A stretch of 24,000 nt of DNA from Owariibacterium komagatae (GCF_045865535.1 NZ_AP031406.1:234134-258133), one strand, 5' to 3'. Shown: positions 2,264 through 20,359, numbered from the stretch's first letter. The notes: generated from the sequence alone by a model not told the origin. Translations and numbers: made by a program.

Positions 2264-2289
2264 GCCCGCGAACTTTGGAGGATTTTGCC

Positions 2290-3384
2290 GTGAAAAATTT
2301 CGAGTATAAAACCATTCTCTGTACGCCGGAAATGGCGACGGAAATGTTGACGCACAATATTCGTAACAGGTCCATCAATAAGTCGGACGTGAAACGAATC
2401 GCCGAACGAATCCAGAGCGGCCAGTGGGAATTCGATGGCTCTCCCATCAAATTCAACTCTGACGGGATTCTGGTAGACGGCCAGCATCGTCTGGCTGCTA
2501 TTGTGAAGGCCGGCATCCCGGTTGAACTCGCTGTGGTCTATGGCGTGGATAGCCAGTGGACGGACACCGGCCGCAAGCGTTCTTCCCGAGATTCCATCTT
2601 TATTAACTACCCGGACCTGGATTGGGTAGACACCAATGCAACGTCCTCGCTGGAATTCCTGAATCAGTTTTGCCCGGAACTCCAGTGCGCAGAGCATCCC
2701 GAGAAAGCAGCGTTTTTCCGGCAACATGCAGAAAAACTTCGAGACATCCTGCCGAAGCTGTGCAAGACGCGGGGCGTGACCGGTTCCATGCGCTGCGCCG
2801 GATTCCGGGCAGCGTTTATGGTGGCCGCTATGGACGACGTGCCCATGAGCGTACTGGACAGAGCCCTGCATATCCTGTTCAGCGGGGCTGGGGACGGTGG
2901 CGTAGACCACACCATTGACTATCTGCGTGAGAATCTGCGCAAGATGGATGGTTCTTATAAAAAGAAGAGCTTTCCTGTGAACCGGGAGATTTTTCTGAAA
3001 AGCTGCTATGCTCTCAAGAAGTTTTCGGAAGGGGTGGAGCTCAGCTCGGCCCGGACGCCCAATGAGTGCCCATTCTATATCTACAATGCCTACGGCGAGC
3101 CTGTCTATACACCTTCCAAGAAGCGCCAGAGAAAACCGACCGCTTCTGTACGCACGACGCTGAACGGTCAGCTGGAGCTTCCTGAACTGAAGCGGGAAAA
3201 GAAACCGCACGACAACCTTGTTGTGGGAAGTATCATCCAGCACCGCTCTTTTGGGCGCGGCGTTGTGACGAGCACGAGCCTGACGAGCCGGGGCGGAGAA
3301 GTGGTGAATGTTCGATTCCCCGATAAAGACTGCACCATTGGCGTAAAATACTGCCTGGAGCACGGTATCATCCAAATTTTGTAA
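2290..3384 (+). CDS. ParB N-terminal-domain-like (DGQHR motif) protein with a UvrD/PcrA-type C-terminal Tudor-like domain
   Basis: ILVDGQHRLAAIVKAGIPVELAVVYGVD is typical of ParB/Srx-fold proteins. I prefer GTG 2290 because GGAGG at 2277-2281 lies 8 nt upstream; the track start at 2275 is a TTG overlapping that SD. The C-terminus VVGSIIQHRSFGRGVV...VRFPDKDCTIGVKYCLEHG parallels the helicase C-terminus. Confidence 0.7.
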   Translation: MKNFEYKTILCTPEMATEMLTHNIRNRSINKSDVKRIAERIQSGQWEFDGSPIKFNSDGILVDGQHRLAAIVKAGIPVELAVVYGVDSQWTDTGRKRSSRDSIFINYPDLDWVDTNATSSLEFLNQFCPELQCAEHPEKAAFFRQHAEKLRDILPKLCKTRGVTGSMRCAGFRAAFMVAAMDDVPMSVLDRALHILFSGAGDGGVDHTIDYLRENLRKMDGSYKKKSFPVNREIFLKSCYALKKFSEGVELSSARTPNECPFYIYNAYGEPVYTPSKKRQRKPTASVRTTLNGQLELPELKREKKPHDNLVVGSIIQHRSFGRGVVTSTSLTSRGGEVVNVRFPDKDCTIGVKYCLEHGIIQIL

Positions 3385-3420: not shown

Positions 3421-4806
3421 TTGATTGAAGAATCTGTTGTCCAGGGCGTTGAAATCGCCATCCCGTCTCCCGCTCAGTGGGTGCTGGACAAATTGAACGG
3501 CGCCGGACATTCAGCCTATGTGGTCGGTGGATGCGTCCGCGATTCTCTTCTCGGCCTTGAGCCGCATGATTGGGACATCTGCACTTCCGCCCGGCCTGAG
3601 CAGGTCATTGATGTGTTCGGTGCAGAACGGGTTATCCCGACCGGCCTGAAGCACGGGACTGTAACCGTGCGGGAGAATGGAGAATCATTCGAGGTCACGA
3701 CGTTCCGTGTGGATGGCCCTTATTCCGACGGACGGCGGCCTGATTCGGTTCGATTCAGCGACGATTTGATAGAAGACCTGATGCGGCGCGATTTCACGGT
3801 GAATGCAATGGCTTACCATCCGGCTGAAGGACTCATTGACCCGTTTGGTGGTCGGGAAGATATCAAGGGTCGGCTGCTACGATGTGTAGGCGACGCATAT
3901 GCTCGCTTCTCCGAGGATGCTCTGCGAATTCTCCGGGCTGTTCGATTCAGTGCAGTGTACGGATTTCGCATTGGGTCATATACTCGGTACGCCATGGCGA
4001 CTGAGGCAAGAATGTTAGGCGGAATCGCAAAAGAGCGCGTGGGAGCAGAGGTCAGAAAGCTGCTGGCAGGCCGGTATGCAGCTGTGGTTGTACGGGAAAA
4101 CATAGCCGTATTGAACGTCATCATCCCATATTTGCAGGACATCCTGAACTGCTCCCAGAACAACAGCTATCACTACGCCAATGTATTCGAACACACGATG
4201 GATGCTATGGCGGCATCGTGGAGGGAAGAGGTGTTCCCCGCCGAGTGGGCGGACGAATATGCTCGGGCGGCTTTGTTTTTCCATGATTTTGGGAAAGCGG
4301 CCGTGAAGACATGCGATGAGCAGGGATATGAACACTTTTATGGACACCCAAAAGTCAGCGCTGAACGAGTTGACGAAATCTTGCGTGGCCTGCGAATGCC
4401 GAACGAGTACCGGCGCGCGGTCGTTCAGCTCGTAGAGAATCACGATGCGACCCTGTACCCGTCTTTGCCATCCGCCCGCCGATGGCTCCTGCGTTTAGGC
4501 GAAGAACAGCTGCGGCGGTTGATGAAGATGCAGGAATGTGACGCGGCCGCTCATGTGGCATCTGTTCACAAAAAGCGATTTGCGGACCTGAAAACTTTTT
4601 CGGATTGCGTGGATATGGTTCTCACTGAAGCATCTGCATTCTCGCTGAAGCAACTGGCGATTTCAGGGAAAGACCTCTTGACAATCGGATATACGCAGGG
4701 ACCGGAAATCGGAAAAACTCTGCGCAGTTTGCTGGAAGATGTCGTTGAGGGGAAATTAAAGAACGAGAAAGAGGCGCTGCTGAGTGCGGCCGCCGGAATG
4801 AGGTAA
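3421..4806 (+). CDS. cca: CCA-adding tRNA nucleotidyltransferase (class II, with HD domain)
   Basis: GGCVRDSLLG..HDWDI, GLKHGTVTV, EVTTFR.DG.Y.DGRRPD and RRDFTVNAM are the pol-beta nucleotidyltransferase head and neck motifs of CCA enzymes. FFHDFGKA is the HD motif. The C-terminal tail is as in Firmicutes Cca. The start is TTG. Confidence 0.85.
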   Translation: MIEESVVQGVEIAIPSPAQWVLDKLNGAGHSAYVVGGCVRDSLLGLEPHDWDICTSARPEQVIDVFGAERVIPTGLKHGTVTVRENGESFEVTTFRVDGPYSDGRRPDSVRFSDDLIEDLMRRDFTVNAMAYHPAEGLIDPFGGREDIKGRLLRCVGDAYARFSEDALRILRAVRFSAVYGFRIGSYTRYAMATEARMLGGIAKERVGAEVRKLLAGRYAAVVVRENIAVLNVIIPYLQDILNCSQNNSYHYANVFEHTMDAMAASWREEVFPAEWADEYARAALFFHDFGKAAVKTCDEQGYEHFYGHPKVSAERVDEILRGLRMPNEYRRAVVQLVENHDATLYPSLPSARRWLLRLGEEQLRRLMKMQECDAAAHVASVHKKRFADLKTFSDCVDMVLTEASAFSLKQLAISGKDLLTIGYTQGPEIGKTLRSLLEDVVEGKLKNEKEALLSAAAGMR

Positions 4807-5045: not shown

Positions 5046-5067
5046 CTTTCCAAAAAGGAGCGAAACA

Positions 5068-5811
5068 ATGGTAATCAGATTCGAAACGGAAAGAATCCTG
5101 GATATTGCCAGGATGATTGACCGAAGCGCAGGAGCGCCCAAAATGTATTCCGACCTTGTTGGCGTGGAGTTTTCCGCAGATTACGCGCTGTTTTCCCGAC
5201 CGGAGTTTCAGGTGGACAAAGGTTCGTATCCTGCGCCTACTTTCGCTGCACTGCGAAATGCCATTCAGAGCATTTACTGGCATCCGGGGTTCAATATCAT
5301 CCCTCTTGCCTGTCTGTGTCGAAATCCTGTTGTGGAAGAGAATATCGCCACCAACGGACTTAACATTCGCAAAAAAGCCGAAGTGGGCACATATGTATAT
5401 GCCGGTCTGAACCGTATGCAGCGGACTCAGCGTTTTTTGCGAAACGTCAAGTACGATGTTGTGGTCGCACTGGTGAGTCGGCCTGATGCGATGCCGGGTG
5501 ATAAATGTCTGAAAAGCTACTATGAACAGCTGACCCGGCATATCCATGATGGGACCAGCTACCGGGCCCCGTATCTGGGAGTGGGTGAGTGTCTGGCTTC
5601 GTTTCGTCCTGTCGATTTCAGCAAATTGGATATTAGCGACGGGAACGGCATGACTCGGGATATCGGTTGGATGGCCTTCGACTACGATTATACGCAGATG
5701 AATCGTGGTGAAGCCAAAGGCCCTATCGCCATGTTCCAAAAGACTCGAATTGAACAGGGTCTGATTGATTATACGAAAGGAGAAATCCGACGTGATTCGA
5801 GCGCTCCTTGA
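5068..5811 (+). CDS. cas5c: Cas5c (Cas5d), type I-C
   Basis: VGVEFSADYALFSRPEF....SYPAPTFAALRNAIQSIYWHPGF matches the Cas5d N-terminal signature (F.DYALF..P....SY.vPT..A..G....IYWKP). ATG 5068 has AAAGGAG 7 nt upstream. An alternative start at ATG 5143 (AGGAG at 5130-5134) would give a canonical-length N-terminus. Confidence 0.85.
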   Translation: MVIRFETERILDIARMIDRSAGAPKMYSDLVGVEFSADYALFSRPEFQVDKGSYPAPTFAALRNAIQSIYWHPGFNIIPLACLCRNPVVEENIATNGLNIRKKAEVGTYVYAGLNRMQRTQRFLRNVKYDVVVALVSRPDAMPGDKCLKSYYEQLTRHIHDGTSYRAPYLGVGECLASFRPVDFSKLDISDGNGMTRDIGWMAFDYDYTQMNRGEAKGPIAMFQKTRIEQGLIDYTKGEIRRDSSAP

Positions 5812-7594
5812 TTTTTATGAGTATCTGCTTGATACCGGACTGGTCGAGGAACAGTTCGGTTGGGCAGAAATGGCTGTGCCTATGACCCTCGATGTGGATT
5901 CGGAAGGCAAGGTTCTTTCTCTCAAGTCCAATGTGTATACCGAGAAGAACGAGAAGGGGAAAGAGCAGCAAATCGTTCCTCGGATGCTTCTGCCTTATCA
6001 CCCTGTACGGTCGAACAACATCCTGCCCTGTATTTTTGCGGATAAGGCGGAATACCTGCTGGGCATCGGCCCACGCGGAAACAAGGCATTCGCTGCCATG
6101 AAGAGTCTCCAAGAAAAACTTTTGGAAGACGTGGATTCTCCCGTCGCCAAAGGAATCCTTCGATTTTTTGGAACGTGGGACCTTTCTTCGGCGTCTGATA
6201 AATTTTCCGAATCCCAAAAGGAGTTGCTTGCAGAATATGCAACCGGCAACATCCTTATTACAGTGAACGGCGTGCCCCCTACCGAAGACCGGGCCTGTGT
6301 ATCTGCTTACAATGCCTATATTAAGGAAGTGGGCATCAGCGGCAGCACACTTCACGGCATTGATTGTATCACAGGAGAGTACGGGACGATTTGTCGTGTT
6401 CATCCGAAAATCAAAGGTATTCGGGCGGCATCCACCGGGGCTCCTCTGTGTACCATCAATAACAATTCCTGTGTACACGCCACTGGCAGGGAACAGGGGT
6501 ACGGCACACCGATGACCGAGCTGAATGTGTACCGGTATTCGACTGCGCTGGAGTATCTGACCCACAGCCCGCTTCACAATTTTTATGATAAGTATTCCGG
6601 CATGAACATCCTGTGCTGGTCTACGGAATGCGACGAGGCGCAACAGGCCGCGCTGCTGTTCGCCATGACCGGCGCACTGGGCAAGGACGAATCCGGAAAT
6701 CGGACGACCGAATATCTGAAACGGATTTACATGGGGCTCGATATTCCGCCGGAAGGCTTCAACCCCAATGCCTATATGCATATCGTTGGGCTTGATTCCC
6801 GGGATGGGTACATTATTCGAACTGTGTTCTGCTATGAAGGTTCGTTTCAGGAGCTGACAGAGAATATTCGCCGTCACTACTGGAACACACGCATCTGCGG
6901 CAGAGGCGGTGTCCCGTTCTATCGTATCTACGAAATGATTTGTAAAAAGAAAGCTGACGGCGGTGTGATTGCCGATAAGAGCAGGATTACCGCCGACATC
7001 ATCAACAGCATCATGACGAACGGGAAGTACCCCGAGCAAATCCTGGACCTGCTCCTCCGGCAGATTCAAAATGAGGCGCAGGGAACAGAGGACTATTTGC
7101 TGAACGCTTCGCAGGCTGGGTTCTTGCGGGCGTATCTGATACAGAATAAAAAGGAGAGTGTTACAGAAATGTTGGACACAGAAAACCGTGACCCTGGGTA
7201 TCTCTGCGGACGAATTTTCGCCGCCGCCGTGAATATCGAACGGGCATCGAAAGCCGGAGAACAGACCCGGCGGACTATGGCGCAGAAGCTGGGTGAGGCG
7301 ATGCGGCATCCTGCGGATTTCTTTCCGCTGATGTTTGCTGACCTGAATGGTGCGTACCTGCGGAAGCTGTACACCAGAGAAAAAACCGCCGGGCTTGCAT
7401 CCATTCTCGAAAAAGAGCTTGGCGAACTGGTGGACCTGCTCCCCAATGGAGGGTATCCCCGGAAGCTGTCCCGCGCTCAGCAGGCACAGTTCTGCACCGG
7501 GTACTACCAGCAGAGGAATAAGTACATCCAGGATGCGGCCGCAAAGAAGGCCGAAAAGGAAAAGAAGAACGAAAACAATGAGGAGGCTGCATAA
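5792..7594 (+). CDS. cas8c: Cas8c (Csd1), type I-C large subunit
   Basis: It lies between cas5c and cas7c and is ~600 aa. The N-terminus VIRALLDFYEYL resembles the Csd1 N-terminus, and the C-terminal YLCGRIFAAAVNIE block is Csd1-like. GTG 5792 has AAGGAG at 5777-5782. The gene overlaps the cas5c end by 20 nt. Confidence 0.85.
   Translation: MIRALLDFYEYLLDTGLVEEQFGWAEMAVPMTLDVDSEGKVLSLKSNVYTEKNEKGKEQQIVPRMLLPYHPVRSNNILPCIFADKAEYLLGIGPRGNKAFAAMKSLQEKLLEDVDSPVAKGILRFFGTWDLSSASDKFSESQKELLAEYATGNILITVNGVPPTEDRACVSAYNAYIKEVGISGSTLHGIDCITGEYGTICRVHPKIKGIRAASTGAPLCTINNNSCVHATGREQGYGTPMTELNVYRYSTALEYLTHSPLHNFYDKYSGMNILCWSTECDEAQQAALLFAMTGALGKDESGNRTTEYLKRIYMGLDIPPEGFNPNAYMHIVGLDSRDGYIIRTVFCYEGSFQELTENIRRHYWNTRICGRGGVPFYRIYEMICKKKADGGVIADKSRITADIINSIMTNGKYPEQILDLLLRQIQNEAQGTEDYLLNASQAGFLRAYLIQNKKESVTEMLDTENRDPGYLCGRIFAAAVNIERASKAGEQTRRTMAQKLGEAMRHPADFFPLMFADLNGAYLRKLYTREKTAGLASILEKELGELVDLLPNGGYPRKLSRAQQAQFCTGYYQQRNKYIQDAAAKKAEKEKKNENNEEAA
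7169..7594 (+). CDS. cas11c: possible internally translated Cas11c (small subunit) within the cas8c 3' end
   Basis: In-frame ATG 7169 follows AAGGAG (7151-7156) by 12 nt. The product is 141 aa and begins MLDTENRDPGYLCGRIF. Type I-C systems are known to make Cas11 from an internal start in cas8c. The position fits, but translation is not shown by sequence alone. Confidence 0.4.
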   Translation: MLDTENRDPGYLCGRIFAAAVNIERASKAGEQTRRTMAQKLGEAMRHPADFFPLMFADLNGAYLRKLYTREKTAGLASILEKELGELVDLLPNGGYPRKLSRAQQAQFCTGYYQQRNKYIQDAAAKKAEKEKKNENNEEAA

Positions 7595-7596
7595 CT

Positions 7597-8514
7597 ATGT
7601 CTGAGAAAACCGTTCTGAACCCCATTACCAATAAATGCGATATTCTGTTCCTGTTCGATGTGGTGGACGGCAACCCCAATGGCGACCCGGATGCGGGCAA
7701 CCGTCCCCGCCAGCATCGTGTGGATGGTGATATGCGTGGCTTTGTCACCGGCGAGTGCATCAAGCGGAAAATCCGCGACTACGTGCTCCGCAAAGTCGAG
7801 GCGGGCGAGCTGCCGGCCGATAAGTACGATATCTACATTCGGCCTGGTAAGCCCCTGGATTTCAAGTGCCAGGAGATGGCGAAGTCCATCGGCATTGAGA
7901 AGCTGGACAAGAAGGGGCAGAAAGAGATTTCCGGCAAAGAGAAGGACAAAGAGCTGCATGATGCCATGTGCGCCCGGTATTTCGATGTCCGCACTTTTGG
8001 CGCCGTCAACACCCTGTTCTCTGATACCGCATACTCTGCTGCGATTCGCGGACCCGTTCAGGTCACGTTCTGCGATAGCGTACACGATATCGAACCTGAG
8101 CGTCTGACCCTGACCCGCTGTGTTGCCACCAAGGACAACGAGGATGAGAAGAATCGCACGATGGGCGACCGTTGGATTGTGCCGTATGGTCTGTACAAGG
8201 GTGTTATTCGGGTTTCCGCTGAGGTCGCAAAGAAGACTGGGGTCTCTGCGGATGACATGAGTTTGCTGATTGAAGCCCTGGAGTGGATGTTTGAGGAAGA
8301 CCAGAGTGCTGCCCGTGGTCTGATGACCATGCGAAAGCTGGTCGTGTTCGAGCATTCCACTGCTCGCGGAAAAGCGCACTTGTCCTCGCTGATGGACACT
8401 GTGGATGTAAAGCTCTGCAATGGGATGGATGCACCGAGCCGGTATGAGGATTACGAGGTCGGGGTGCGCGGTGAATTGCTGCCCCCGAACGTAAAAATGC
8501 ATGTTGTCGTTTGA
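7597..8514 (+). CDS. cas7c: Cas7c (Csd2), type I-C backbone subunit
   Basis: DILFLFDVVDGNPNGDPDAGNRPR is the hallmark Csd2/Cas7 N-terminal motif. It is 305 aa, and GAGGAGG (7580-7586) lies upstream of the ATG. Confidence 0.9.
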   Translation: MSEKTVLNPITNKCDILFLFDVVDGNPNGDPDAGNRPRQHRVDGDMRGFVTGECIKRKIRDYVLRKVEAGELPADKYDIYIRPGKPLDFKCQEMAKSIGIEKLDKKGQKEISGKEKDKELHDAMCARYFDVRTFGAVNTLFSDTAYSAAIRGPVQVTFCDSVHDIEPERLTLTRCVATKDNEDEKNRTMGDRWIVPYGLYKGVIRVSAEVAKKTGVSADDMSLLIEALEWMFEEDQSAARGLMTMRKLVVFEHSTARGKAHLSSLMDTVDVKLCNGMDAPSRYEDYEVGVRGELLPPNVKMHVVV

Positions 8515-8517
8515 GTT

Positions 8518-8686
8518 ATCGCACCTTATGCGGGTGCGCGAATTGAAATCCGGACGTGAAAGCGCATATCATTGTTTGAGATGTCGCGCCCTGTATGGGC
8601 GCGGGAATCGAAATGTCCCGATGGGTCTGTCGATTAGGCGCATCTTGGTATAAAATCGGACCCCACGCAGGTGCGTGAATCAAAAT
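8518..8686 (+). CRISPR. degenerate 3-repeat mini-array abutting the cas7c stop codon
   Basis: Repeats are at 8518-8549, 8583-8614 and 8655-8686 (ATCGCACCTTATGCGGGTGCGCGAATTGAAAT, GTCGCGCCCTGTATGGGCGCGGGAATCGAAAT, ATCGGACCCCACGCAGGTGCGTGAATCAAAAT). Spacers are 33 and 40 nt. The array starts 4 nt after the cas7c TGA (8512-8514), with no leader. Confidence 0.7.
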
Positions 8687-8849
8687 ATAATCATCACCAC
8701 CTTAGTTCTGAGTGCGAAGGGACAGCGAACCGAAAAGCGCTGGTCTCTTCGCACTTATCTTGACTTGTGTCAATGCAATCCAAAAGTAAAATCGTGTTGT
8801 CAAAACATACATGTTGTGCTTTGAGTTGTCGGGTTGCGCGATATATGGA
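8687..8849 (+). promoter_or_regulatory. putative leader of the main CRISPR array, containing a repeat remnant
   Basis: This 163-nt non-repeat segment lies between the mini-array and the first main repeat. It is relatively AT-rich near 8760-8825. Its 3' end (8827-8849, GTCGGGTTGCGCGATATATGGA) looks like a repeat with an internal deletion. Repeat decay at the far end of the array (10266-10608) supports this end being leader-proximal. I could not place a well-spaced sigma-70 promoter. Confidence 0.45.
8711..8755 (+). terminator. hairpin, possible terminator or processing structure between mini-array and leader
   Basis: AGTGCGAAG (8711-8719) and CTTCGCACT (8747-8755) are perfect 9-nt inverted repeats. 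There is further imperfect pairing inside (GACAGCG/CGCTGGTC), followed by TATCTT. The U-tract is weak. Confidence 0.3.
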
Positions 8850-10608
8850 GTCGCACCCTGCACGGGTGCGCGAATCAAAACGCCTATATGGCACCAGAAA
8901 CACATCGTAGACATCGGGTCGCACCCTGCACGGGTGCGCGAATCAAAACGCGCCAAGCTGACCTGTAACACGCAAGTAGTCGCGCCCACACGGGTGCGTG
9001 AATCGAAATATACCATTCGCCGCTGGTGTCTTTGTCGCACCTCACGCGGGTGCGCGAATCAAAACAATACTTTCTTCTTTCTGGCTGCTACTGGAATACG
9101 TCGCACTCTGCACGGGTGCGCGAATCGAAATATAGACCCCGCAATTACCCCGGCTTTCCCGGAGAAGGCCGCACCCTTCGCGGGTGCGCGAATAGAAACC
9201 AGCAGAGCTCGTGTTAGGCGCGGATGATTTGGGTCGCACCCTACGCGGGTGCGCGAATCGAAATGCAACCAAGGACGGGGCAGAGGTCAAGGGTTACAGG
9301 TCGCACCTTACGCGGGTGCGTGAATCAAAACTTAGCGATAGGAGGCTTGACAACAGCGTCGCACCCCACTTGGGTGCGCGAATCGAAATCCGAACCCGTC
9401 CCGTAGAAGAAAGCGGCCCGGAATGTCGCACCCTGCGCGGGTGCGCGAATCAAAACCGAAAAAGAGCCATCTGCGTATGATACGTCCCGGGTCGCACCCT
9501 GTACGGGTGCGCGAATCGAAATTTGGCAAATGCGATTATCTTGGCAATCCAAATGTCGCACCTCACGCGGGTGCGCGAATCGAAATCCAACCGCGCACAT
9601 CGAAAAAGCATACGGAAGTGTCGCACCCTGCACGGGTGCGCGAATCGAAATGTGGCAAATGCGATTATCTTGGCAATCCAAATGTCGTACCTCACGCGGA
9701 TGCGCGAATCGAAATGACTCAAAATCACAAGCCAGCCGACAGCCCATCCGTCGCACCTCACGCGGGTGCGCGAATCGAAATTGGACAACGGCGCTGCCGC
9801 AGATATCCCCGCCATGTCGCACCCTGCGCGGGTGCGCGAATCGAAATGACACTCCCACATTTCAAACTGTTGAGTATGAGGGTCGCACCTCACGCGGGTG
9901 CGTGAATCAAAATTATTGCCGGAGAATGAATTTTCCGCAATACCGCCGCGTCGCACCCTTCGCGAGTGCGCGAATCGAAATAGTAACACTCGCCCCGAAA
10001 AGTAGTTATACTTGACGTCGCACCTCACACGGGTACGTGAATCAAAACACGCCAAGCTGACCTGTAACACGCAAGTAGTCGCGCCCACACGGGTGCGCGA
10101 ATCGAAATGCCCTGCGCCAGAAAACGCAAAGGGCTTACTACCGTCGCACCCTGCGCGGGTGCGCGAATCGAAATCTGGCAAATGCGATTATCTTGGCAAT
10201 CCAAATGTCGCACCTCACGCGGGTGCGAGAATCGAAATCACCATAAAAATGCCTCTGTGGCAAAAATCGCACCCAAACATGGGTGTGGGAATTGAAATCC
10301 CGGAAAGTAGGTTATAATAGCTCCTCTGGTCTTAGCGCACCTCACACGAGTGCGCGGTGCGCGAATCGAAATACAACCATACCGCAGCATATGTTGGTGC
10401 CGTACTGCATCGCACCCCACACGGGTGCGCAAATCGAAATAAATGGAAATACACTGGAACGATGTGAGAAAATCTGTCCTTTGCGACATGATTTGTCCAC
10501 CATAGCAGTCGCGCCCACATGGGTGCGCGAATTAAAATGATGTTGCGGCAGTTTTCATCATGGAGACATTCCAGGTCGCCCCCTGTACGGGTGCGTGAAA
10601 CTAAAAAT
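8850..10608 (+). CRISPR. type I-C CRISPR array, 27 repeats and 26 spacers
   Basis: The consensus repeat GTCGCACCCTGCACGGGTGCGCGAATCGAAAT (32 nt) has the orientation and hairpin of canonical I-C repeats (GTCGC...ATTGAAAT/C). Repeat starts: 8850, 8918, 8979, 9034, 9100, 9168, 9233, 9300, 9358, 9425, 9491, 9555, 9620, 9684, 9750, 9816, 9882, 9950, 10017, 10078, 10143, 10207, 10266, 10335, 10408, 10508, 10575. Spacers are 24-36 nt plus one of 68 nt. The last five repeats are degenerate (33, 38, 32, 31 and 34 nt). Confidence 0.95.
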
Positions 10609-10645
10609 AAAGTAAGAAATCAAGCCGCTGCGCCCTCTTTTCTTT

Positions 10646-10665
10646 CCCCGAAAAGTGCATACAAT
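10646..10665 (+). promoter_or_regulatory. promoter-like motif CCCCGAAAA-N5-TACAAT upstream of the 520-aa secreted protein gene
   Basis: CCCCGAAAAGTGCATACAAT lies 107 nt upstream of ATG 10772. The same architecture occurs at 18002-18022 and 23614-23636 and inside two spacers. Function is untested. Confidence 0.4.
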
Positions 10666-10771
10666 ATTGTTCGAAAGCTGATGCGCGACAAAACGGCAGG
10701 TTTATGCCGCGTATTGCATTTCGAACAATAAAAACCGGTAGCATGCCGGGCACAGAAGGGAAGAAAACAAA

Positions 10772-12334
10772 ATGAAGAATTTCAAACGCGCCGTGTCGTG
10801 CGCAATGGCTGTGGCTATGGCTCTGAGCTGCGCCGCCGTCCCCGCCTTCGCGGCCGAGGACATGACTGAGCCCAATCCGGTTATCGAGGCTCACCCTGAT
10901 GATGGTATGAGCCCCACCAAGGTCGTTACCCCCATCGGCCAGAAGACCTTCTACAAAATCAGCGGCGACCGCGTGATTTACACCGACCGTGATGATGGCA
11001 CCGGCTGGGAGGCCGTTCCGTCTCAGTACATCAAGGACAGTGAGTACAACGTGGGCAACGTTGATTACGGCATTTATGCGACTTCCGATGGCGAAGTGCA
11101 TTTCGTTGCCCTGAGCGACTGCCACGACGAAGGCGATGGTACTTACACTTGGTATCACGGCACTTCCGACAGCGCCACCGTATCCGAGGACGTGGATAAG
11201 GCCACCAACACCGACCCCACTATGGGGACTCAGTTCTACCTGAACATCGAGAACGGTATCGACCCCGACGGCACCACCGAAGAGGATAAGGTGGAGGCCG
11301 GCACCGCCGATGAGCGCGTGGACTACGAAATCACGGTGGGCACCAAAACCACCTATCAGCTGAACGCCACTGTCCCCATGTACGTGTGTATGTATGGCTT
11401 TCGAGGAACCGGCAACGTCGTGACCCCTGATTCCGACGCTTACCGGCTGAAGAACATGTCCACCATCAACCGGGCCTCCAGCGCTTCCATTCTGGACATC
11501 GTGAAAGTCACCCATATGGCGAAGATTTACGATGAGAACCACAGCGACGAGACCCTGTACTCCATCGCTTACGATGAGGAGACCGGTTCCTACACCTACT
11601 GGTACAGCAACCCCGCATTCACCGCTACCGGCGAGCCCAATGTGAATTGGCAGGAGCCGGAGAACTATCTGGTCATCGAAGATAAGAACATCAACGCTTC
11701 CGGCGAGTGCTACGTTATCTTCATCGACGGCGAATGGACCTTCAAGGCTGCCGGCGTTCTGGACGACGATGCGTTCCGCGAAACTGTGGACGCCATCGAC
11801 CCGAGCCATCCTCTGAGTGAGGACTTCATCCACAACGGCTTCAACTTCGGCAAAGAGTTCAGCGTTGGTGCTGTTTCCAACGAAAGCGAGCAGTCTGTGG
11901 ACGAGGGCCTGGCCCTGAAAGTTACCGAGCTCCAGGCTGAGCCCGCTACCTGGCGCCTGAAGCCCGTAAGCACCAGTGTTTCCGCTTTGAAGCGCGGTGA
12001 GCTGGCAATGAGCATCGCCCCCAAGACCGCTATCTCCAATGCTTCCGCTATCGACCTGTCTCAGTGCAGCGGCAAAATGGACATCACCGAGAACGGCTGG
12101 TTCCTGGATGCCCCCAAGACTGTTGAGAAAGACGGTTCTGTGAAACCCGAGAACGCCACCACCCTTCCCGTAATCACCAAGGCTCAGATGGCCGGCGGTA
12201 ACGTTAACGATGCTGGCTGCACCAGTGTTGTTAAGGTGAACTACACTCTGACCCCGGTGTTCCAGACTGGCGACGGCGAGACTTCTACCGATATTGGCAA
12301 CGTTGTGGAAAGCAACCGCGAAGTAGCCAAGTAA
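10772..12334 (+). CDS. secreted hypothetical protein (520 aa) with N-terminal signal peptide
   Basis: MKNFKRAVSCAMAVAMALSCAAVPAFA/AED is a signal peptide with an AFA-A cleavage site. The composition is Thr/Asp/Glu/Asn-rich, like extracellular proteins. The overlapping 410-aa minus-strand ORF is V/G/H-rich shadow. Confidence 0.8.
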   Translation: MKNFKRAVSCAMAVAMALSCAAVPAFAAEDMTEPNPVIEAHPDDGMSPTKVVTPIGQKTFYKISGDRVIYTDRDDGTGWEAVPSQYIKDSEYNVGNVDYGIYATSDGEVHFVALSDCHDEGDGTYTWYHGTSDSATVSEDVDKATNTDPTMGTQFYLNIENGIDPDGTTEEDKVEAGTADERVDYEITVGTKTTYQLNATVPMYVCMYGFRGTGNVVTPDSDAYRLKNMSTINRASSASILDIVKVTHMAKIYDENHSDETLYSIAYDEETGSYTYWYSNPAFTATGEPNVNWQEPENYLVIEDKNINASGECYVIFIDGEWTFKAAGVLDDDAFRETVDAIDPSHPLSEDFIHNGFNFGKEFSVGAVSNESEQSVDEGLALKVTELQAEPATWRLKPVSTSVSALKRGELAMSIAPKTAISNASAIDLSQCSGKMDITENGWFLDAPKTVEKDGSVKPENATTLPVITKAQMAGGNVNDAGCTSVVKVNYTLTPVFQTGDGETSTDIGNVVESNREVAK

Positions 12335-12356
12335 TCGGCGGTCCGCTCGTCAGGAC

Positions 12357-12388
12357 GTCGCGCCCAATATAGGGCACCAAATCAAAAC
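12357..12388 (+). repeat. orphan degenerate CRISPR repeat 1.75 kb downstream of the array end
   Basis: GTCGCGCCCAATATAGGGCACCAAATCAAAAC has the same length and orientation as the array repeat. It shares GTCGCGCCC, a GCCC/GGGC stem and the AAATCAAAAC 3' end. It lies between the stop codon (12334) and the terminator (12408-12444). Confidence 0.7.
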
Positions 12389-12407
12389 CCAATAAACGAA
12401 ACAGCAG

Positions 12408-12444
12408 GCGCCGCCGGAATCCTGCCGCCGGTGGCGCTTTCTGT
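12408..12444 (+). terminator. rho-independent terminator
   Basis: GCGCCGCCGG (12408-12417) pairs with CCGGTGGCGC (12428-12437) as a 10-bp stem with one G-U pair. It is followed by TTTCTGTT. Confidence 0.6.
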
Positions 12445-12561
12445 TACAGATAAGGGTTTCACGCTCGGAAATTTTTCTGAGCGTGTACATAGCGCGTATG
12501 CGTTGTGAGGCAGTTCTTATTTTTAAGGGCGGCCAATTTAGAAAAGGAGAGATGTGCGATT

Positions 12562-13140
12562 ATGGACGAACAGAATCAGAACACCCTGGTTGTGGAAACC
12601 GAGAACGGGACCGCACCGAAACCCAAGAAGAAGCGCAAGAAAATTCTGATTATCATTTCAGTCATCGTTTTGGCGCTGATGGTGGGAATCGGCGGTGTTT
12701 ATGTGTATCAGTACACGCACCCGAGCGATGCGGTCCAGTTTGAGGAGCAAATCAAAGCAAAACTGGGACAGCTGGAGGACAAGAGCAACGAGGAAAAGCT
12801 GGCGGCCTTAAACGAAATCGTTCAGGAGGGCGAGCTGAAAATCTCTATCAATGCGAGTCCTGTGTTTGCGACCGGAGATTCCGAGGGCGACCTCAGAATC
12901 GAAAACCATCCCAACAACCTGTACGAGCAGCGTGTTGTAATTACATTGGATGATACCGGCGAGGAGATTTACCATTCTGGCCCCATGCCAATCAATTCCA
13001 ACATCTACTCGGACAAACTCGAAGTTGACCTCGATGCGGGCGAGTATAAAGCGACCGCACTGTTTACGGCATATGACCCTGAAACTGGCATCGAGGTCGG
13101 ACAGGCATCCGCTAACATCACGATTACTGTCCTTGGCTAA
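12562..13140 (+). CDS. hypothetical single-pass membrane protein (192 aa)
   Basis: ATG 12562 lies downstream of AAGGAG (12544-12549). KPKKKRKK is followed by the TM helix ILIIISVIVLALMVGIGGVYVY, then a beta-rich extracellular-type domain. Confidence 0.7.
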   Translation: MDEQNQNTLVVETENGTAPKPKKKRKKILIIISVIVLALMVGIGGVYVYQYTHPSDAVQFEEQIKAKLGQLEDKSNEEKLAALNEIVQEGELKISINASPVFATGDSEGDLRIENHPNNLYEQRVVITLDDTGEEIYHSGPMPINSNIYSDKLEVDLDAGEYKATALFTAYDPETGIEVGQASANITITVLG

Positions 13141-13169
13141 TTTTTCGATGTAGACAGGGGGTGAAAACT

Positions 13170-13523
13170 ATGGCATTGCGAAAAAAACGGCTTGCCGGCA
13201 TCGTCCTTGCGGTCGCACTGACCGTCTCTTGCGCAGTGGTCCCTGCATTTGCAGAAGAACTGCCGATTGACAAAGCGACACCTGACGAGGCTACTGTGTC
13301 GGAAGAGGTGGACCAGGCCACCAACACGGACCCGGAAATCGGGACCCAGTTCTTTATGTACATCCCACCGGATATCGTAGAACAGGATATTCCCAAGATG
13401 GGCGACGAGGGAGTTCCCACTTCCACTCTGGTTCTCGCTGCGCTTGCAACTGGGGCTGGATTCCTCACCGTCTCCAAATACGCTTTTGCGGACCGGCGTG
13501 GACATGCAAAAGCTGTTTCGTAA
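13170..13523 (+). CDS. small secreted protein with a C-terminal cell-wall-sorting-like signal
   Basis: Signal peptide is MALRKKRLAGIVLAVALTVSCAVVPAFA/EE. The C-terminus is IPKMGDEG-VPTSTLVLAALATGAGFLTV-SKYAFADRRGHAK (motif, hydrophobic stretch, basic tail). It shares ATVSEEVDQATNTDPEIGTQF with the 520-aa protein. ATG 13170 is 8 nt after GGGGG; the track start at 13161 is a GTG. Confidence 0.65.
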   Translation: MALRKKRLAGIVLAVALTVSCAVVPAFAEELPIDKATPDEATVSEEVDQATNTDPEIGTQFFMYIPPDIVEQDIPKMGDEGVPTSTLVLAALATGAGFLTVSKYAFADRRGHAKAVS

Positions 13524-14340
13524 CGTATGCAGAGTCCTCAGCGTTTTTCTGCTCATTGTGTTCCTCGGTTTCAGTGCGGCAGCCGGGACAAGGCTCTATG
13601 ATACATGGAAAACGCGCCACACAGTAAACCAGCTGTCGGAACTTCGGTTGATGGCCCAGGAAGAAAAGGACTGGTCAAAGGGCATGCTCGCCATCAATCC
13701 GGACTACGTCGGCTGGCTTACTGTATATGGAACAACAGCGGATGGGCCTGTGGTACAGGGCGAAGATAATAACGAATATCTTCGAACCAATATCTACGGA
13801 GAACACGCTACGGCTGGGACATTGTTTATGGATTCCATCGTGAATATGGACTCTGGCGGCAATTTGATTATCTATGGACATCATATGCGGGACGACACTA
13901 TGTTTGGTGAATTCGATAAGTACCGCAATAAGGAGTTCATGGAGGAAAACAATATTGTTCGGTGGGAGGACAAGACCGGAACACACATTTTCCGCCTGTT
14001 TGGCGCGATGATTATTTCCGGCTCATCCACGGACACGGATTATGTCAATCTCCAGCAATGGGCAAATAAGCCTGGGGCGCAAGAGACCCGTTCGATGCTG
14101 CAAATTTTAAAAGAGAAGTGCTTTCTTTATCAAGATGATTTGTTTCGGGACCCGAACGGACGGTATCTTTTCCTCGTTACCTGTGACGAACGTTTTTGGA
14201 ACGGACGAATCGTTCTAATCGGCGAAGAACTGGACGGTGACAGCACCACCCTCGTCCCCAAAGATACCGCCAGAGATACCGAAACACATGAGACAACCCA
14301 GTCTTCTCAACCCTCTGAGTCCGCCGAGAAAGCAAAATAA
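13504..14340 (+). CDS. srtB: class B sortase
   Basis: An N-terminal TM anchor is followed by INPDYVGWL...GTTADGPVVQG.DN.EYL, IIYGHHMRDDTMFG (catalytic His), LFLVTCDE (TLxTC-like catalytic Cys) and NGRIVL (Arg). ATG 13504 overlaps the previous gene by 20 nt. Confidence 0.85.
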   Translation: MQKLFRNVCRVLSVFLLIVFLGFSAAAGTRLYDTWKTRHTVNQLSELRLMAQEEKDWSKGMLAINPDYVGWLTVYGTTADGPVVQGEDNNEYLRTNIYGEHATAGTLFMDSIVNMDSGGNLIIYGHHMRDDTMFGEFDKYRNKEFMEENNIVRWEDKTGTHIFRLFGAMIISGSSTDTDYVNLQQWANKPGAQETRSMLQILKEKCFLYQDDLFRDPNGRYLFLVTCDERFWNGRIVLIGEELDGDSTTLVPKDTARDTETHETTQSSQPSESAEKAK

Positions 14341-14399: not shown

Positions 14400-14430
14400 A
14401 AAACGAAAGGTTAGGTTTTATTGTCAATAA

Positions 14431-14450
14431 CCCACGACTGAAGTCGCGGG
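14431..14450 (+). repeat. left subterminal hairpin CCCACGACTGAAGTCGCGGG
   Basis: It is identical to 16006-16025. The stem is CCCACGAC/GTCGCGGG (one A-C mismatch) with a TGAA loop. Confidence 0.75.
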
Positions 14451-14727
14451 CTTGTCGAATGCGGTGAGCCCAAGGCTTCTGGCGTGCCCGAAAGGGTGTG
14501 TTGACTACCCTGTGCGCGTTAAGTCGCGCCCCGTTGTAAGCGAATGTATAGGCACCGGTGGACGTTAATCCTAATCTGCTGCTCTGCGGCAGCACATCAT
14601 GGAGGCCGAGGTAAGCCGACAGGTGTGTTGTGAAAACCGTTTGCAACTTTGGGGAAGGATTCCAACTCTCCGCAAGGAGAGGGTGGCTTCTTTTTAGCCG
14701 CCAAATTTTGAGAAGGAGTATGGCATC
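14431..14727 (+). ncRNA. putative IscB omega-RNA scaffold; the guide would lie just 5' of it
   Basis: This ~300-nt GC-rich non-coding stretch lies directly upstream of and co-oriented with iscB, and runs into its RBS (GAAGGAG 14712-14718). IscB omega RNAs are known to be encoded in this position. The exact ends cannot be determined by eye. Confidence 0.5.
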
Positions 14728-15993
14728 ATGCAATATGTGTATGTCCTTAATATGCACGGCGAGCCTTTGATGCCGTGTTCCCCACGGAAGGCTCGCTTGC
14801 TTTTGAAAGAAGGAAAGGCTCGCGTTGTAAAACGCACGCCGTTCGCAATCAAACTTCTGCACGGAAGTGCGGGATACAAGCAACCCGTTGTCCTGGGCGT
14901 GGATGCAGGCTCCAAGCATGTGGGACTTTCTGCCTGTACTGAAAGCAGGGAACTCTACAAAGAAGAGCTGACACCCCGCAACGATGTGGTGGAGTTGCTC
15001 TCGGCGAGGCGGCAATACCGCCGTAGCCGTCGGAACCGCAAAACCAGATACAGGGCACCGCGTTTCAACAACCGGGTACACAGCAAGCACAAAGGCTGGC
15101 TGGCGCCGTCGGTGGAAGTCAAAATCCAGGAACACACCACCGTCATCAAGCGCGTTTGCAGGATTCTTCCCATCGTGCTGGTGCGTGTGGAAACCGCCGA
15201 ATTTGACACCCAGCGGCTAAAAGCCATGCTGGAAGGCAAGCCTCTGCCAGTGGGCAAAGACTACCAGCTCGGCGAGATGTACGACGAATACAATGTGCGC
15301 CAGTATGTCCTGAAACGGGACAGATACACTTGTCAGCACTGCGGCGCACATCCGACGTCTGAAAAAACGATTCGTTTGCATGTTCATCATCTGGAGAGCC
15401 GGAAAACCGGCGGGAACGCTCCCAACAATCTGATTGTCCTGTGCGAGCATTGCCACAAGGCACTGCACAAAGGGAAAATCAAACTGCGAAAGGGTAAAAA
15501 GCGCGGCAAGCCGTTGCGTGACGCTGCCTTCATGGGCATCATGCGCAACACGCTGCTGGCCCGCCTGTGGGATGAGCTGAACGTCCCCGTCGAACAGACC
15601 TACGGGTACATCACCAAGCTGTTGCGGGAGAAGAACAAAATTCCGAAAAGTCATGTGAACGATGCTCGCTGTATTGCCGGATTCCCAACCGCAGAGTCAT
15701 GCGATACGATGTTCCGCACGCGGGCACTCCGCCACCACAACCGGCAAATCCACAAGGCAAAAATCCTTAAAGGCGGCATCCGCAAAAAGAACCAGGCCCC
15801 GTACCTGGTGAAGGGATTCCGCCTCTGGGACAAGGTCCGGTATAACAGCGAAGAGTGCTTCATTACCGGCAGGCGTTCAAGCGGGTACTTTGCCCTTAAA
15901 AAGCACGACGGAACCGCTGTCTCAAACAGCGCGAGCTACAAAAAACTGACGCTGCTGGAGGCAGCGACAAATTATATCACAGAGAGGAGTTGA
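14728..15993 (+). CDS. iscB: IscB RNA-guided nuclease (PLMP, split RuvC, bridge helix, HNH), 421 aa
   Basis: Motifs seen: PLMP domain NMHGEPLMPCSPRKARLLLKEGKA; RuvC-I VLGVDAGSKHVG; Arg-rich bridge helix RRQYRRSRRNRKTRYRAPRF; RuvC-II VRVETAEFD; HNH CQHCG...HVHHLESRKTGGNAPNNLIVLCEHCHKALH; RuvC-III SHVNDARCIA. Confidence 0.85.
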   Translation: MQYVYVLNMHGEPLMPCSPRKARLLLKEGKARVVKRTPFAIKLLHGSAGYKQPVVLGVDAGSKHVGLSACTESRELYKEELTPRNDVVELLSARRQYRRSRRNRKTRYRAPRFNNRVHSKHKGWLAPSVEVKIQEHTTVIKRVCRILPIVLVRVETAEFDTQRLKAMLEGKPLPVGKDYQLGEMYDEYNVRQYVLKRDRYTCQHCGAHPTSEKTIRLHVHHLESRKTGGNAPNNLIVLCEHCHKALHKGKIKLRKGKKRGKPLRDAAFMGIMRNTLLARLWDELNVPVEQTYGYITKLLREKNKIPKSHVNDARCIAGFPTAESCDTMFRTRALRHHNRQIHKAKILKGGIRKKNQAPYLVKGFRLWDKVRYNSEECFITGRRSSGYFALKKHDGTAVSNSASYKKLTLLEAATNYITERS

Positions 15994-16005
15994 AGGCGCA
16001 TTCCT

Positions 16006-16025
16006 CCCACGACTGAAGTCGCGGG
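16006..16025 (+). repeat. right subterminal hairpin CCCACGACTGAAGTCGCGGG
   Basis: Identical copy of 14431-14450, lying 13 nt after the iscB stop codon. Confidence 0.75.
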
Positions 16026-16042
16026 TCTCCTGCGCCAAATTT

Positions 16043-17546: not shown

Positions 17547-17995
17547 AAAAGTTTGTGTCGTGGTTTAACGGTTTGCCCCGAAAAACTCAGGCCATATCTG
17601 GATTCATCGTCATCCTGGCCCTCTGCGGACTATCTATTGGGACGGCGATTTTGCAAATCCAGCGGACGAAAAACGACGAATATCCTCCTGCGCCCGCTAT
17701 CTCGCAAAGTGCCGATTCGGAACAGTTCGTTCCGACGCCAGAGAGTGCCGCGAATGCTGATGAGAGCCAACACTTTGAGTCGGCTCTGTCCGAAACTGCT
17801 GTGCCGGATGGAATCGAAGACCGAATGGCCGAATGGTTGGCCGAAGCGGATGAGCCAAACGACCTGATGGAAAACGAGGATTTTGTGGACTTTATGCTAA
17901 ATGACGTCGGTATGTCTGAAGAGGAGCTGCGGGAGAATATAGCCGAAGCGCAGTCCGAGGTCGAAGCTGCCCGGGCAGAAGCTGCGAAGAGCTAA
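17543..17995 (+). CDS. hypothetical membrane-anchored acidic protein (150 aa)
   Basis: The GTG start overlaps the preceding stop (GTGTGA). TM helix AISGFIVILALCGLSIGTAIL is followed by an acidic E/D/A-rich tail. Confidence 0.6.
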   Translation: MKKFVSWFNGLPRKTQAISGFIVILALCGLSIGTAILQIQRTKNDEYPPAPAISQSADSEQFVPTPESAANADESQHFESALSETAVPDGIEDRMAEWLAEADEPNDLMENEDFVDFMLNDVGMSEEELRENIAEAQSEVEAARAEAAKS

Positions 17996-18001
17996 CGCTC
18001 G

Positions 18002-18022
18002 CCCCGAAAAACAGGGTATAAT
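18002..18022 (+). promoter_or_regulatory. promoter-like motif CCCCGAAAA-N6-TATAAT
   Basis: CCCCGAAAAACAGGGTATAAT has a perfect -10 hexamer. It lies 7 nt after the upstream stop codon and 98 nt before the kinase ATG. Confidence 0.4.
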
Positions 18023-18563: not shown

Positions 18564-18837
18564 GATTGGGCCCATTAACTTTACGTGTGGTTAATCCCTC
18601 GGACGGTTAAGGGGCGCAGGCAAGGATACCCGCCATCTGTGCGTTGGTCGCATGGATGGCAGGTACTCCAAAAGCGGACGTTCATGCTGCGGTCTCCGCA
18701 GCGAGCACTGCGGTGGTTATCCCAGCTCCGCACGAGTCTTCGGACTCATACTGCTTAGTGAACGTCCAGCCAGGGGAAACATCACCCGTGACGGGAGCAA
18801 TCCCGGACGCGGAGTCTTAACGAAAGGAGTGGCTCAC
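18564..18837 (+). ncRNA. putative omega-RNA of the second IscB
   Basis: This 274-nt GC-rich non-coding region lies directly upstream of and co-oriented with the second iscB, with many local stems (e.g. ATTAAC...GTTAAT at ~18575-18596, GCGGTCTCCGC near 18689). It has no sequence similarity to the first omega region. The ORF-track extension from 18652 has no RBS. Confidence 0.45.
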
Positions 18838-20307
18838 ATGGCCGCAGTATATGTGTTATCGAAAGCTGGTAAACCTTTGATGCCCACGACCCGCTGCGGC
18901 CATGTGCGCCATCTTCTCAAACAGAAGAAAGCGAAGGTCGTGGCAACAAAGCCGTTTACCATCCAACTGCTGTATGAATGCCCCGAAGAAAAGCAGCCTC
19001 TGGTCCTGGGTATCGACCCCGGGCGCACGAACATCGGCGTCGCTGTTGTCAAAGAGGACGGCGAACCTGTGTTTAGCGCCGAGGTCAGAACTCGGAATAA
19101 GGAAATCCCGAAGCTGATGACAAGCCGCAGGGCGTTCCGGCAGGCACACCGCCGCCTGGGCCGCCGCAAGGTTCGTCAGCGCAGGGCAAAGAAAGCTGGG
19201 ACGGTTATTCCCGGCGGCTCCATCAAGCGAGTTCTGCCCGGATGTGAGGAACCCATCGAGTGCAAGCTCATCCGTAATAAAGAAGTGCGGTTCAACAACC
19301 GCAAACGTCCCGCTGGATGGCTGACTCCGACGGCGAATCAGCTGCTGCTGACCCATCTGAACGTTGTGAAGAAAATCCAGAAGTTCATTCCCCTCAGCGA
19401 CGTTGTTCTGGAGTTGAACAAATTTGCCTTCATGGCAATAGACAATCCGAACATCAGGCGCTGGGAATACCAAAAGGGGTCGCTTCATGGCTTTAGCTCG
19501 GTGGAGGATGTGGTATTCCGCTTACAAGAGGGTCATTGCATCTTCTGCAAAAAGCCCATCGCGCATTATCACCATGTCGTGCCCGTCAGCAAAGGTGGTT
19601 CCAACACGCTGGAAAACCGTGTAGGCGTGTGTAAAAAACATCATGGGCTCGTGCATACGGACGCCGCATGGCGCGAAAAACTCACCAGAAAGAAAGCCGG
19701 CGCCAACAAAAAGTATCATGCGCTGAGTGTGTTGAACCAAATCATCCCTCGTCTGGAGCGCGAGTTGGCAACGGCCTTCCCCGGGCACTGTTTCGTGACC
19801 GAAGGCCAAAGCACGAAAGCGTTCCGCGATGCCAATGGCGTGGAGAAAACGCACCACAGCGATGCGTACTGCATTGCATGCTCGATTTTGCCGACGGCGA
19901 AGGTCTCTGTCCCTGAACAGATGTTTGAGATTCGACAGTTCCGACGCCACGACCGGCAGGCTGTCCATCAGGCTATGCTCGACAGGAAATATTACCTCGA
20001 CGGCAAACTGGTGGCGAAAAACCGGCACAAGGCTACCGAGCAATTTTCCGATAGCCTGGAAGAATTTGTCGCCAAAGGCGGCGACGTTTCCCAGCTCGTC
20101 GTGAAGGAGCATAAGCCCGTCTACAAGCGGCAGGACCGCTGGATGCCGGGCAGCATTATTTTGTTCGACGGTACAGTCGGTGTACTGGACCATTCAGCGG
20201 GCTTTCATAACGGCAAAGTTGATTATTACTTTGATACAAAAGGAAACCGCTCCCATTCAAATAAGTGTATCTTGCTGGCTCGCTCCACAGGTCTTGTGGT
20301 GGTGTGA
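18838..20307 (+). CDS. iscB: IscB RNA-guided nuclease, second divergent copy (489 aa)
   Basis: ATG 18838 is 8 nt after AAAGGAG. Motifs seen: [32 protein letters not shown]; Ruv[18 protein letters not shown]; bridge helix [23 protein letters not shown]; Ruv[11 protein letters not shown]; [43 protein letters not shown]; Ruv[13 protein letters not shown]. Confidence 0.85.
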
Positions 20308-20359
20308 ATCGCAAAAAACACACAGAAAGTTTGGAAGCCCTGAATTAGGAGGAAAAGTT

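Follow-up and report, generated by a model that had tools for sequence, protein, structure and literature searches.

A solitary type I-C CRISPR repeat between the first two genes of a surface-protein operon in Owariibacterium komagatae

The chromosome of Owariibacterium komagatae carries a minimal type I-C CRISPR locus beside an operon for surface proteins, and a single additional copy of the array repeat, here called the orphan, lies inside that operon. We analyzed a stretch of 24,000 nucleotides (nt) containing this locus (GCF_045865535.1 NZ_AP031406.1:234134-258133), hereafter the window, whose positions are counted from its first letter. Comparison of the sequences confirms that the orphan is a genuine homolog of the adjacent type I-C array repeat, a solitary repeat unit, and its position should fall within the 3' untranslated region (UTR) of the mRNA of the first operon gene.

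The orphan repeat and its setting

All of the features from the start of the window to the sortase gene lie on the + strand. The main type I-C array (8850-10608, ~27 repeats) ends in a degenerate terminal repeat, GTCGCCCCCTGTACGGGTGCGTGAAACTAAAAAT, at 10575-10608, and a stretch of 1748 nt (10609-12356) separates this repeat from the orphan, GTCGCGCCCAATATAGGGCACCAAATCAAAAC, at 12357-12388. Between the two repeats are a CCCCGAAAAGT...TACAAT motif (10646-10665), a long 5' UTR hairpin (ATTGTTCGAAA...TTTCGAACAAT; 10662-10728), and an open reading frame (ORF) at 10772-12334, here gene 1, which encodes a secreted protein of 520 amino acids (aa) and is the first gene of the operon. The orphan begins 22 nt past the stop codon of gene 1 (12332-12334), in the orientation of the array, and is followed by an unpaired, spacer-like stretch after its handle (CCAATAAACGAAACAGC; 12389-12405) and by an intrinsic-terminator-like hairpin (GGCGCCGCCGG...CCGGTGGCGC) with the tail TTTCTGTT (12406-12448). 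The operon continues with gene 2 (12562-13140), which encodes a single-pass membrane protein of 192 aa, with a gene for a small secreted protein of 120 aa bearing a C-terminal sorting signal (13161-13523), and with a gene for a class B sortase (13504-14340; Pfam Sortase; NCBIfam sortase_srtB, 4e-44). The original prediction for this locus, made from the sequence alone, had assigned correct coordinates to the terminal repeat and the orphan and had correctly given the 520-aa ORF and the 22-nt gap after its stop codon; the terminator that it placed downstream of the orphan is also there, as a strong GC hairpin with a U-rich tail.

The array repeat has the type I-C consensus GTCGCACCCTGCACGGGTGCGCGAATCGAAAT and is highly variable, with 106 distinct sequences, about 29 loop variants, and lengths of 31-39 nt among the 253 repeats of the window and the arrays of L001, L014, L026, L027, and L029-L038. 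The orphan has the architecture of a type I-C repeat: 32 nt, a stem-loop, and an 11-nt 3' handle ending in AATCAAAAC. It resolves into GTC, the 5' arm GCGCCC, the loop AATATA, the 3' arm GGGCAC (ancestrally GGGCGC), and the handle CAAATCAAAAC, which begins at about position 12378 and has 10 of its 11 bases in common with the array repeats. Its 5' end is kept in 9 of 9 positions and the ancestral 3' arm in 6 of 6, whereas the loop is wholly unlike any array loop. For a head-plus-tail score, we compared its first 9 and last 17 bases with the repeat variants that occur three or more times in 15 arrays of this species. The orphan matches at 22 of the 26 bases, the best other site on the two strands of the window matches at 19, and none of 200 shuffles attains 22. 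The closest real array variants are identical to the orphan at 25-27 of 32 bases, and the 9 bases at each of its ends agree exactly with real variants, with the 32-nt spacing precisely kept. The entirely different loop explains why a strict position matrix gives the orphan only 2.8 bits, less than the 3.2 bits of an unrelated cas7 site, and why it is not reported by a local nhmmer profile of the array repeats. The exact sequence has no match in IMG/VR, and Rfam has no match at this site. The RNA of the region folds into the repeat hairpin, ~17-22 unpaired nt, and a GC-rich hairpin of 12-17 base pairs (bp), followed by UUUCUGUU. The claim of a repeat copy oriented as the array is upheld by the head-plus-tail score, and the stem and near-consensus handle that had been described for it are likewise retained.

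Variation among strains bears directly on how the orphan should be read. We compared 13 strains of the species, namely, the window strain and 12 others at ~97% identity (L001, L014, and L029-L038), and found the array, gene 1, the orphan, the terminator, and gene 2 in all 13. The orphan occurs as three alleles that differ solely in the 3' stem arm. Eight strains have GGGCGCC, with a perfect 6-bp stem (GCGCCC/GGGCGC); four have GGGTGCC, with one G.U pair; and the window alone has GGGCACC, with a C.A mismatch and four contiguous pairs, so that the repeat hairpin has 4 bp in the window strain and 6 bp in most strains. The two polymorphisms are changes from CG to TG and from CG to CA within GCGC (12375-12376; equivalent sites in L001 and L029). 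Since each weakens the ancestral 6-bp stem, this shallow sample gives no sign of purifying selection on the hairpin, and the retention of the orphan in every strain carries little weight because the strains are ~97% identical. Two of the ~9 variable sites in 254 nt fall within the 6-base 3' stem arm, and the two variants, being both transition products of one CG, fit a hot spot of 5-methylcytosine deamination.

The operon, the cas module, and their relatives

The original description of gene 1 as a complete secreted-protein ORF holds, and its product has a canonical Sec signal peptide (MKNFKR...VPAFA/AED). The product is predicted to be all-beta, and its AlphaFold2 model has a predicted local distance difference test (pLDDT) score of 72; it has no match in Pfam, NCBIfam, or the plasmid database, and that model has no fold match in PDB. 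Exact-protein look-up of the gene 1 product and of the window Cas7 returned no record. The leader hairpin that had been proposed for gene 1 is real and strong: the fold of 10640-10771 has an energy of -49.6 kcal/mol (z = -6.7) and is conserved in all strains, with no match to this 5' UTR hairpin in Rfam. The proposed promoter fared less well, in that the CCCCGAAAAGT...TACAAT motif is present but is weak by the sigma-70 consensus and is not called by a promoter scan.

We found 141 homologs of gene 1, in metagenomes and in genomes of Oscillospiraceae that include Allofournierella, Gemmiger, and Faecalibacterium. In every locus examined, more than 20 of them in other Oscillospiraceae, gene 1 is directly followed by a homolog of gene 2 (~190 aa); this constant pairing identifies gene 1 as the first gene of a conserved operon and not as a cassette that travels alone. 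The intergenic regions between the two genes in other Oscillospiraceae measure 11-110 nt and usually hold a plain terminator hairpin. Several of the loci lie in conjugative elements that carry VirB4-like, TrbL-like, M23 peptidase, and Toprim/DUF3991 genes; in others, genes for a small sorting-signal protein and a sortase come next, as they do in the window. The window itself has no conjugation, relaxase, or integrase genes; the operon is chromosomal here and is fixed in the 13 strains. The 120-aa protein ends in IPKMG, a hydrophobic stretch, and RRG, and the class B sortase gene is next to it. It has in common with the gene 1 product a signal peptide and the motif ATVSE.VD.ATNTDP..GTQF (DNA repeat D11, 11174-11248 versus 13290-13364); the gene 1 product has no sorting signal and ends in a conserved C-terminal SNR.

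Upstream of the array lie cas5c (5065-5811; Pfam Cas_Cas5d; NCBIfam type I-C Cas5c TIGR01876; type I-C Cas5 chains of PDB at 5e-19), cas8c (csd1; 5765-7594; Pfam Cas_Csd1, full length, 1e-80), and cas7 (csd2; 7597-8514; Pfam Cas_Cas7, 7e-74). The start of cas5c is uncertain, since its ORF could open at 4849 and homology begins at about residue 100 of this long ORF. In place of a full set of cas3, cas5c-cas8c-cas7, and cas4-cas1-cas2, we found cas5c, cas8c, and cas7 alone in the window and in the loci of L066, L068, L069, and L070. A survey of ORFs and Pfam domains detected no cas3, cas4, cas1, or cas2 in the 24-kb window, and no cas3 or adaptation genes occur within 9-22 kb in the sister lineages L066, L068, L069, and L070/L071.

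The whole CRISPR region (8518-10608) bears many marks of rearrangement. A three-repeat mini-array (8518-8686) stands directly 3' of the cas7 stop codon and is followed by a leader-like segment of 163 nt (8687-8849), homologous to the cas7-to-array leader of L066, that has repeats on both sides. The last ~30 nt of cas7 and the first repeat have been duplicated twice (8470-8881), which accounts for the three-repeat mini-array between cas7 and the leader; both "spacer 1" in the mini-array and the end of the leader-like segment are diverged cas7-tail copies. Within the main array, repeat-spacer-repeat units are duplicated (9491-9716 and 10143-10239; 8918-9009 and 10017-10108), one spacer occurs three times and another twice (families D8 and D9), and one repeat, of 39 nt, contains an internal duplication. 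Its repeats have polymorphic loops and tails and decay toward the trailer end. The terminal repeat at 10575-10608 is specific to the window strain, with other strains finishing in a different terminal repeat, and spacers common to the strains occur in different orders. Two array spacers have no protospacer in IMG/VR, and no spacer other than one promoter-like spacer (9982-10016) has a self-target longer than 11 nt in the window.

The window opens with pcrA (182-2263; ORF/Pfam survey), an ORF of no assigned function (2275-3384; ORF survey), and a gene for a CCA-adding enzyme (3421-4806). Downstream of the sortase gene are an IscB element with a HEARO RNA, several small genes (traX among them), another IscB-like gene, and ligA. 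The two IscB-type elements span 14431-16040 and 18571-20339. The first encodes an RRXRR+HNH protein (14728-15993) preceded by the HEARO/omega RNA (14423-14666; 77.9 bits, slightly below the gathering score), and the second encodes an RRXRR/HNH protein of 551 aa (18652-20307). Both stretches are missing from the otherwise collinear L001, L014, and L029, which marks them as recent insertions.

We ordered the events at the locus by comparison with sister lineages, chosen by their Cas8c identity to the window: L066 (80%, with Cas7 at 95%), L068 (78%), L069 (65%), and L070/L071 (72%). All of them have cas5c-cas8c-cas7 and an array. Downstream of the array, L066 and L068 have gene 1, gene 2, the small protein, and the sortase, and L069 has a gene 1 homolog three genes past the array; with the window lineage included, a gene 1 homolog lies downstream of the array in four of five lineages. 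After gene 1, L066 and L068 have ordinary hairpins only and no repeat, and none of more than 20 loci with gene 1 homologs at 47-70% identity has a repeat signal near gene 1 above noise. Since L066 and L068 combine the array and the operon without an orphan, the adjacency of the two is older than the species and the orphan is a later addition. The comparison indicates that the junction of array and gene 1 is ancestral and that the orphan, seen in this species only, is derived. The comparative check that had been proposed for the orphan came out divided, in that the repeat is conserved in all 13 strains but is missing from the sister lineages and from distant gene 1 loci.

Rates of divergence across the locus are uneven. 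Cas7 of the window is 95% identical to that of L066, whereas the proteins of the downstream operon are only 50-56% identical. Gene 1 and gene 2 diverge in parallel, both being 51-56% identical to their counterparts in L066 and L068 and 59-69% identical to those in loci without CRISPR, which leaves no recombination breakpoint at the orphan. On the same matching pattern, we ruled out the orphan as the breakpoint of an allele swap of gene 1. We also rejected a candidate vestigial repeat (ACGTCG...AAATGAAAAAC) at the same position in L065, the nearest relative by gene 1 (69%), which scores at noise level. In L068, a TnpB (IS605 OrfB) element (8192-9313) is inserted between gene 1 and gene 2, and L066 has an HNHc_6 gene between its array and gene 1.

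Origin and possible roles of the orphan repeat

We tentatively favor, at a confidence somewhat short of even, the reading that the orphan is a by-product copy, co-transcribed with gene 1 and probably cleavable, that is tolerated and not selected. A repeat copy would have entered the intergenic region between gene 1 and gene 2 in this lineage only, after the operon already adjoined the cas5c-cas8c-cas7 array, most likely by the kind of repeat-driven ectopic recombination or duplication that has plainly scrambled the rest of the array. Standalone repeats are known to arise sporadically around CRISPR loci (bioRxiv 10.1101/2023.03.03.530964), and the duplications of the cas7 tail, the repeat-bracketed leader, the repeated spacers, the 39-nt repeat, and the variable terminal repeats mark this locus as prone to recombination. 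Placed between the stop codon and the terminator, the orphan would be transcribed together with gene 1. Given the retained hairpin and the handle, Cas5c probably binds the orphan and cuts at the 3' base of the stem. Such a cut would leave the gene 1 mRNA ending in the repeat hairpin and would free a fragment of ~45-60 nt, resembling a CRISPR RNA (crRNA), with the 11-nt handle, the spacer-like stretch, and the terminator hairpin. At most, the orphan may act as a mild decoy for Cascade subunits; we do not favor a selected regulatory device.

Several observations weigh against this reading. Nothing rose above shuffled controls when we compared the flanks of the orphan with the spacers of the 15 arrays, with a circularized repeat-spacer unit, and with the trailer junction, and the lack of flank homology leaves the recombination event behind the orphan undocumented. 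The preservation of the arms and the handle beside a diverged loop is the pattern that would be expected under selection for binding by Cas5c or Cascade. The layout of the orphan is, moreover, that of validated single-repeat type I-C crRNA-like RNAs (crlRNAs), and it resembles RacrIC1.

Such resemblances sustain a second, less probable reading, in which the orphan is a functional solitary repeat unit that Cas5c processes out of the gene 1 transcript. It might serve as a crRNA-like guide (handle, spacer-like stretch, and 3' hairpin) that steers the Cas3-less Cascade to a partly matching promoter, as a decoy like the RNA anti-CRISPRs (Racrs) that ties up Cas5c and Cas7 to the extent that gene 1 is expressed, or as a processing or stabilizing site that uncouples gene 1 mRNA from gene 2. 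The original prediction had raised cleavage by Cas5c or binding by Cascade in the gene 1 3' UTR, and the stem and handle are compatible with such recognition. The stem arms and 10 of 11 handle bases persist despite the fully diverged loop, the orphan, standing after the stop codon and before the terminator, is certain to be co-transcribed provided that the terminator functions, and the geometry is that of the type I-C Nezha crlRNA of Neisseria (48-50 nt, with its 3' end in a hairpin loop) and of RacrIC1 downstream of acrIC5. The partner Cascade is without Cas3 and adaptation genes at the loci examined in at least five lineages, which makes a non-nuclease role plausible, and all 13 strains retain the orphan, a retention that counts for little among strains so similar. 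Against a functional unit stand the absence of the orphan from the sister lineages that have the same cas-array-operon arrangement and the two polymorphisms, which both weaken the stem, to four contiguous pairs in the window strain. No acr genes were recognized nearby, and the locus is chromosomal and outside any active mobile element; with respect to the mobile-element origin of Racrs, gene 1 homologs do occur in conjugative elements, whereas the window operon is chromosomal. The orphan has the layout of a crlRNA, in which a repeat-like hairpin and an 11-nt handle precede a spacer-like stretch that runs into a 3' hairpin, and for this reading we sought targets of the spacer-like stretch next to TTC, the protospacer-adjacent motif (PAM). 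Neither strand of the 24-kb window holds a TTC-flanked seed match, the best seeds are at chance level, and the PAM-proximal promoter match of ~11-16 bp with 5'-TTC that characterizes crlRNAs is absent from the window. The spacer-like 16-mer has 24 matches in IMG/VR, which is chance level; none of them extends further, and none has a TTC PAM.

We weighed two further readings. In one, which we consider very unlikely and largely refuted by the comparison of lineages, a single-gene cassette entered the trailer of an array that had been continuous until then, or recombined with it, as the original prediction had suggested. Same-orientation repeats do stand on both sides of gene 1, the array trailer is degenerate and varies among strains, and other non-CRISPR DNA within the CRISPR region is bracketed by repeats. 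Gene 1 is never alone, however, being followed by gene 2 in every locus examined, including CRISPR-free contexts in conjugative elements; in the sister lineages L066 and L068, the array is succeeded by gene 1 and gene 2 without a downstream repeat; and the two genes have the same divergence pattern with no breakpoint between them. The related notion that gene 1 formally occupies the place of a spacer also fails if it is taken to mean acquisition by the adaptation machinery: the insert measures 1748 nt, the flanking repeats are only ~75% alike, the window has no cas1 or cas2, and the gene predates the orphan. In the other reading, the least probable of all and in effect refuted by the head-plus-tail score, the resemblance to a repeat is a coincidence of a GC hairpin and an A-rich tract ahead of a terminator. 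The silence of nhmmer and the low matrix score beside that of the cas7 site would agree with chance, as would the A-rich tracts that precede the terminator in homologous intergenic regions of other species. Chance would not readily give exact ends at the spacing of a repeat with the stem correctly placed, nor a score that no shuffle reaches and that exceeds the runner-up site by 3 matches, nor would it put such a site less than 1.8 kb from the array and in its orientation; relatives in which no array is adjacent, moreover, score at noise level.

The recurrent linkage of the cas module to the operon is a separate matter from the origin of the orphan. A CCCCGAAAA motif stands a few bases 5' of a -10-like hexamer in the window (10646 and 18002), L066 (~14575), L068 (~6290), L024 (~3855), and L069 (~5300); it recurs 5' of gene 1 homologs and of other genes beside these arrays and is a candidate operator or promoter element. 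The arrays of two lineages hold a spacer that resembles the CCCCGAAAA-motif promoters of adjacent genes. In the window, the promoter-like spacer AGTAAC[A/G]CTCGCCCCGAAAAGTAGTTATACTTGAC (9982-10016), present in most strains, matches 18 nt (17993-18010) 5' of an AAA_33 kinase-like gene; in L001, it also matches a site immediately past ligA at 21 of 22 nt. Another spacer, in L066 (12979-13012), matches 20 nt, with one mismatch, of the promoter region of that locus's gene 1 (14571-14590). These matches have the PAMs AGA and TTT, not TTC, and are mismatched at seed positions 1-3. We think it improbable, though worth stating, that the Cas3-less and adaptation-less Cascade, linked in at least four lineages to an operon whose family is otherwise borne by conjugative elements, controls the operon or its incoming relatives without cutting DNA, by binding CCCCGAAAA promoters through partly matching spacers and, in this species, through the repeat in the gene 1 mRNA as well. 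If true, this would be a natural, chromosomal form of CRISPR-interference-like control over a cell-surface structure. The repeated placement of a minimal cas5c-cas8c-cas7 module beside the same surface-protein operon suggests, more generally, a derived, non-immune use of Cascade. A minimal I-C module with hypervariable repeats recurs in several gut Oscillospiraceae lineages, and this context is more unusual than the orphan itself.

Comparison with known systems

The type I-C crlRNAs are single-repeat RNAs that repress Nezha and other "CRISIS" systems, with Cas5c cutting at the base of the repeat hairpin (bioRxiv 10.1101/2024.12.27.630466). The orphan resembles them in its hairpin, its 11-nt handle, its spacer-like stretch, and a 3' hairpin ~35-40 nt downstream, with the hairpin loop ~30-40 nt past the handle of the orphan. 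They differ from it in lying between cas3 and cas5c and in matching a nearby promoter over 16 bp beside a TTC PAM; the orphan has no match in the window and is missing from the sister loci. RacrIC1 is a type I-C RNA anti-CRISPR encoded by a prophage beside acrIC5 (Camara-Wilpert et al. 2023, PMC10651486). Just as RacrIC1 lies 11 nt past a coding gene and is co-transcribed with it, the orphan lies 22 nt past gene 1 and would be co-transcribed, but its host is a chromosomal surface-protein gene beside an array, with no acr gene recognized. Should Cas5c cut the orphan, the locus would be an example from nature in which the end of a housekeeping or surface-protein mRNA is shaped by a CRISPR nuclease, and it would provide a simple system for testing the requirements of type I-C repeat recognition.

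Degenerate terminal repeats of arrays resemble the orphan in having decayed from the consensus on the trailer side. The orphan differs from them in that 1.75 kb with a complete, conserved gene separates it from the array and in that several terminal repeats within arrays have a less well preserved stem and handle. Ectopic repeat copies near CRISPR-cas loci have been explained by the propensity of repeats for recombination (Shmakov et al. 2023, bioRxiv 10.1101/2023.03.03.530964). Like the solitary repeats of that study, the orphan is single, near the array, in the same orientation, partly degraded, and sporadic in one lineage. Unlike them, it lies in the 3' UTR of a structural gene that is not a cas gene rather than in an intergenic region of a cas operon, no target was found for it, and an ordinary terminator hairpin follows it in place of a degenerate second repeat. 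The orphan adds one example to the known standalone repeats and is unusual only for its site in the 3' UTR of a structural gene.

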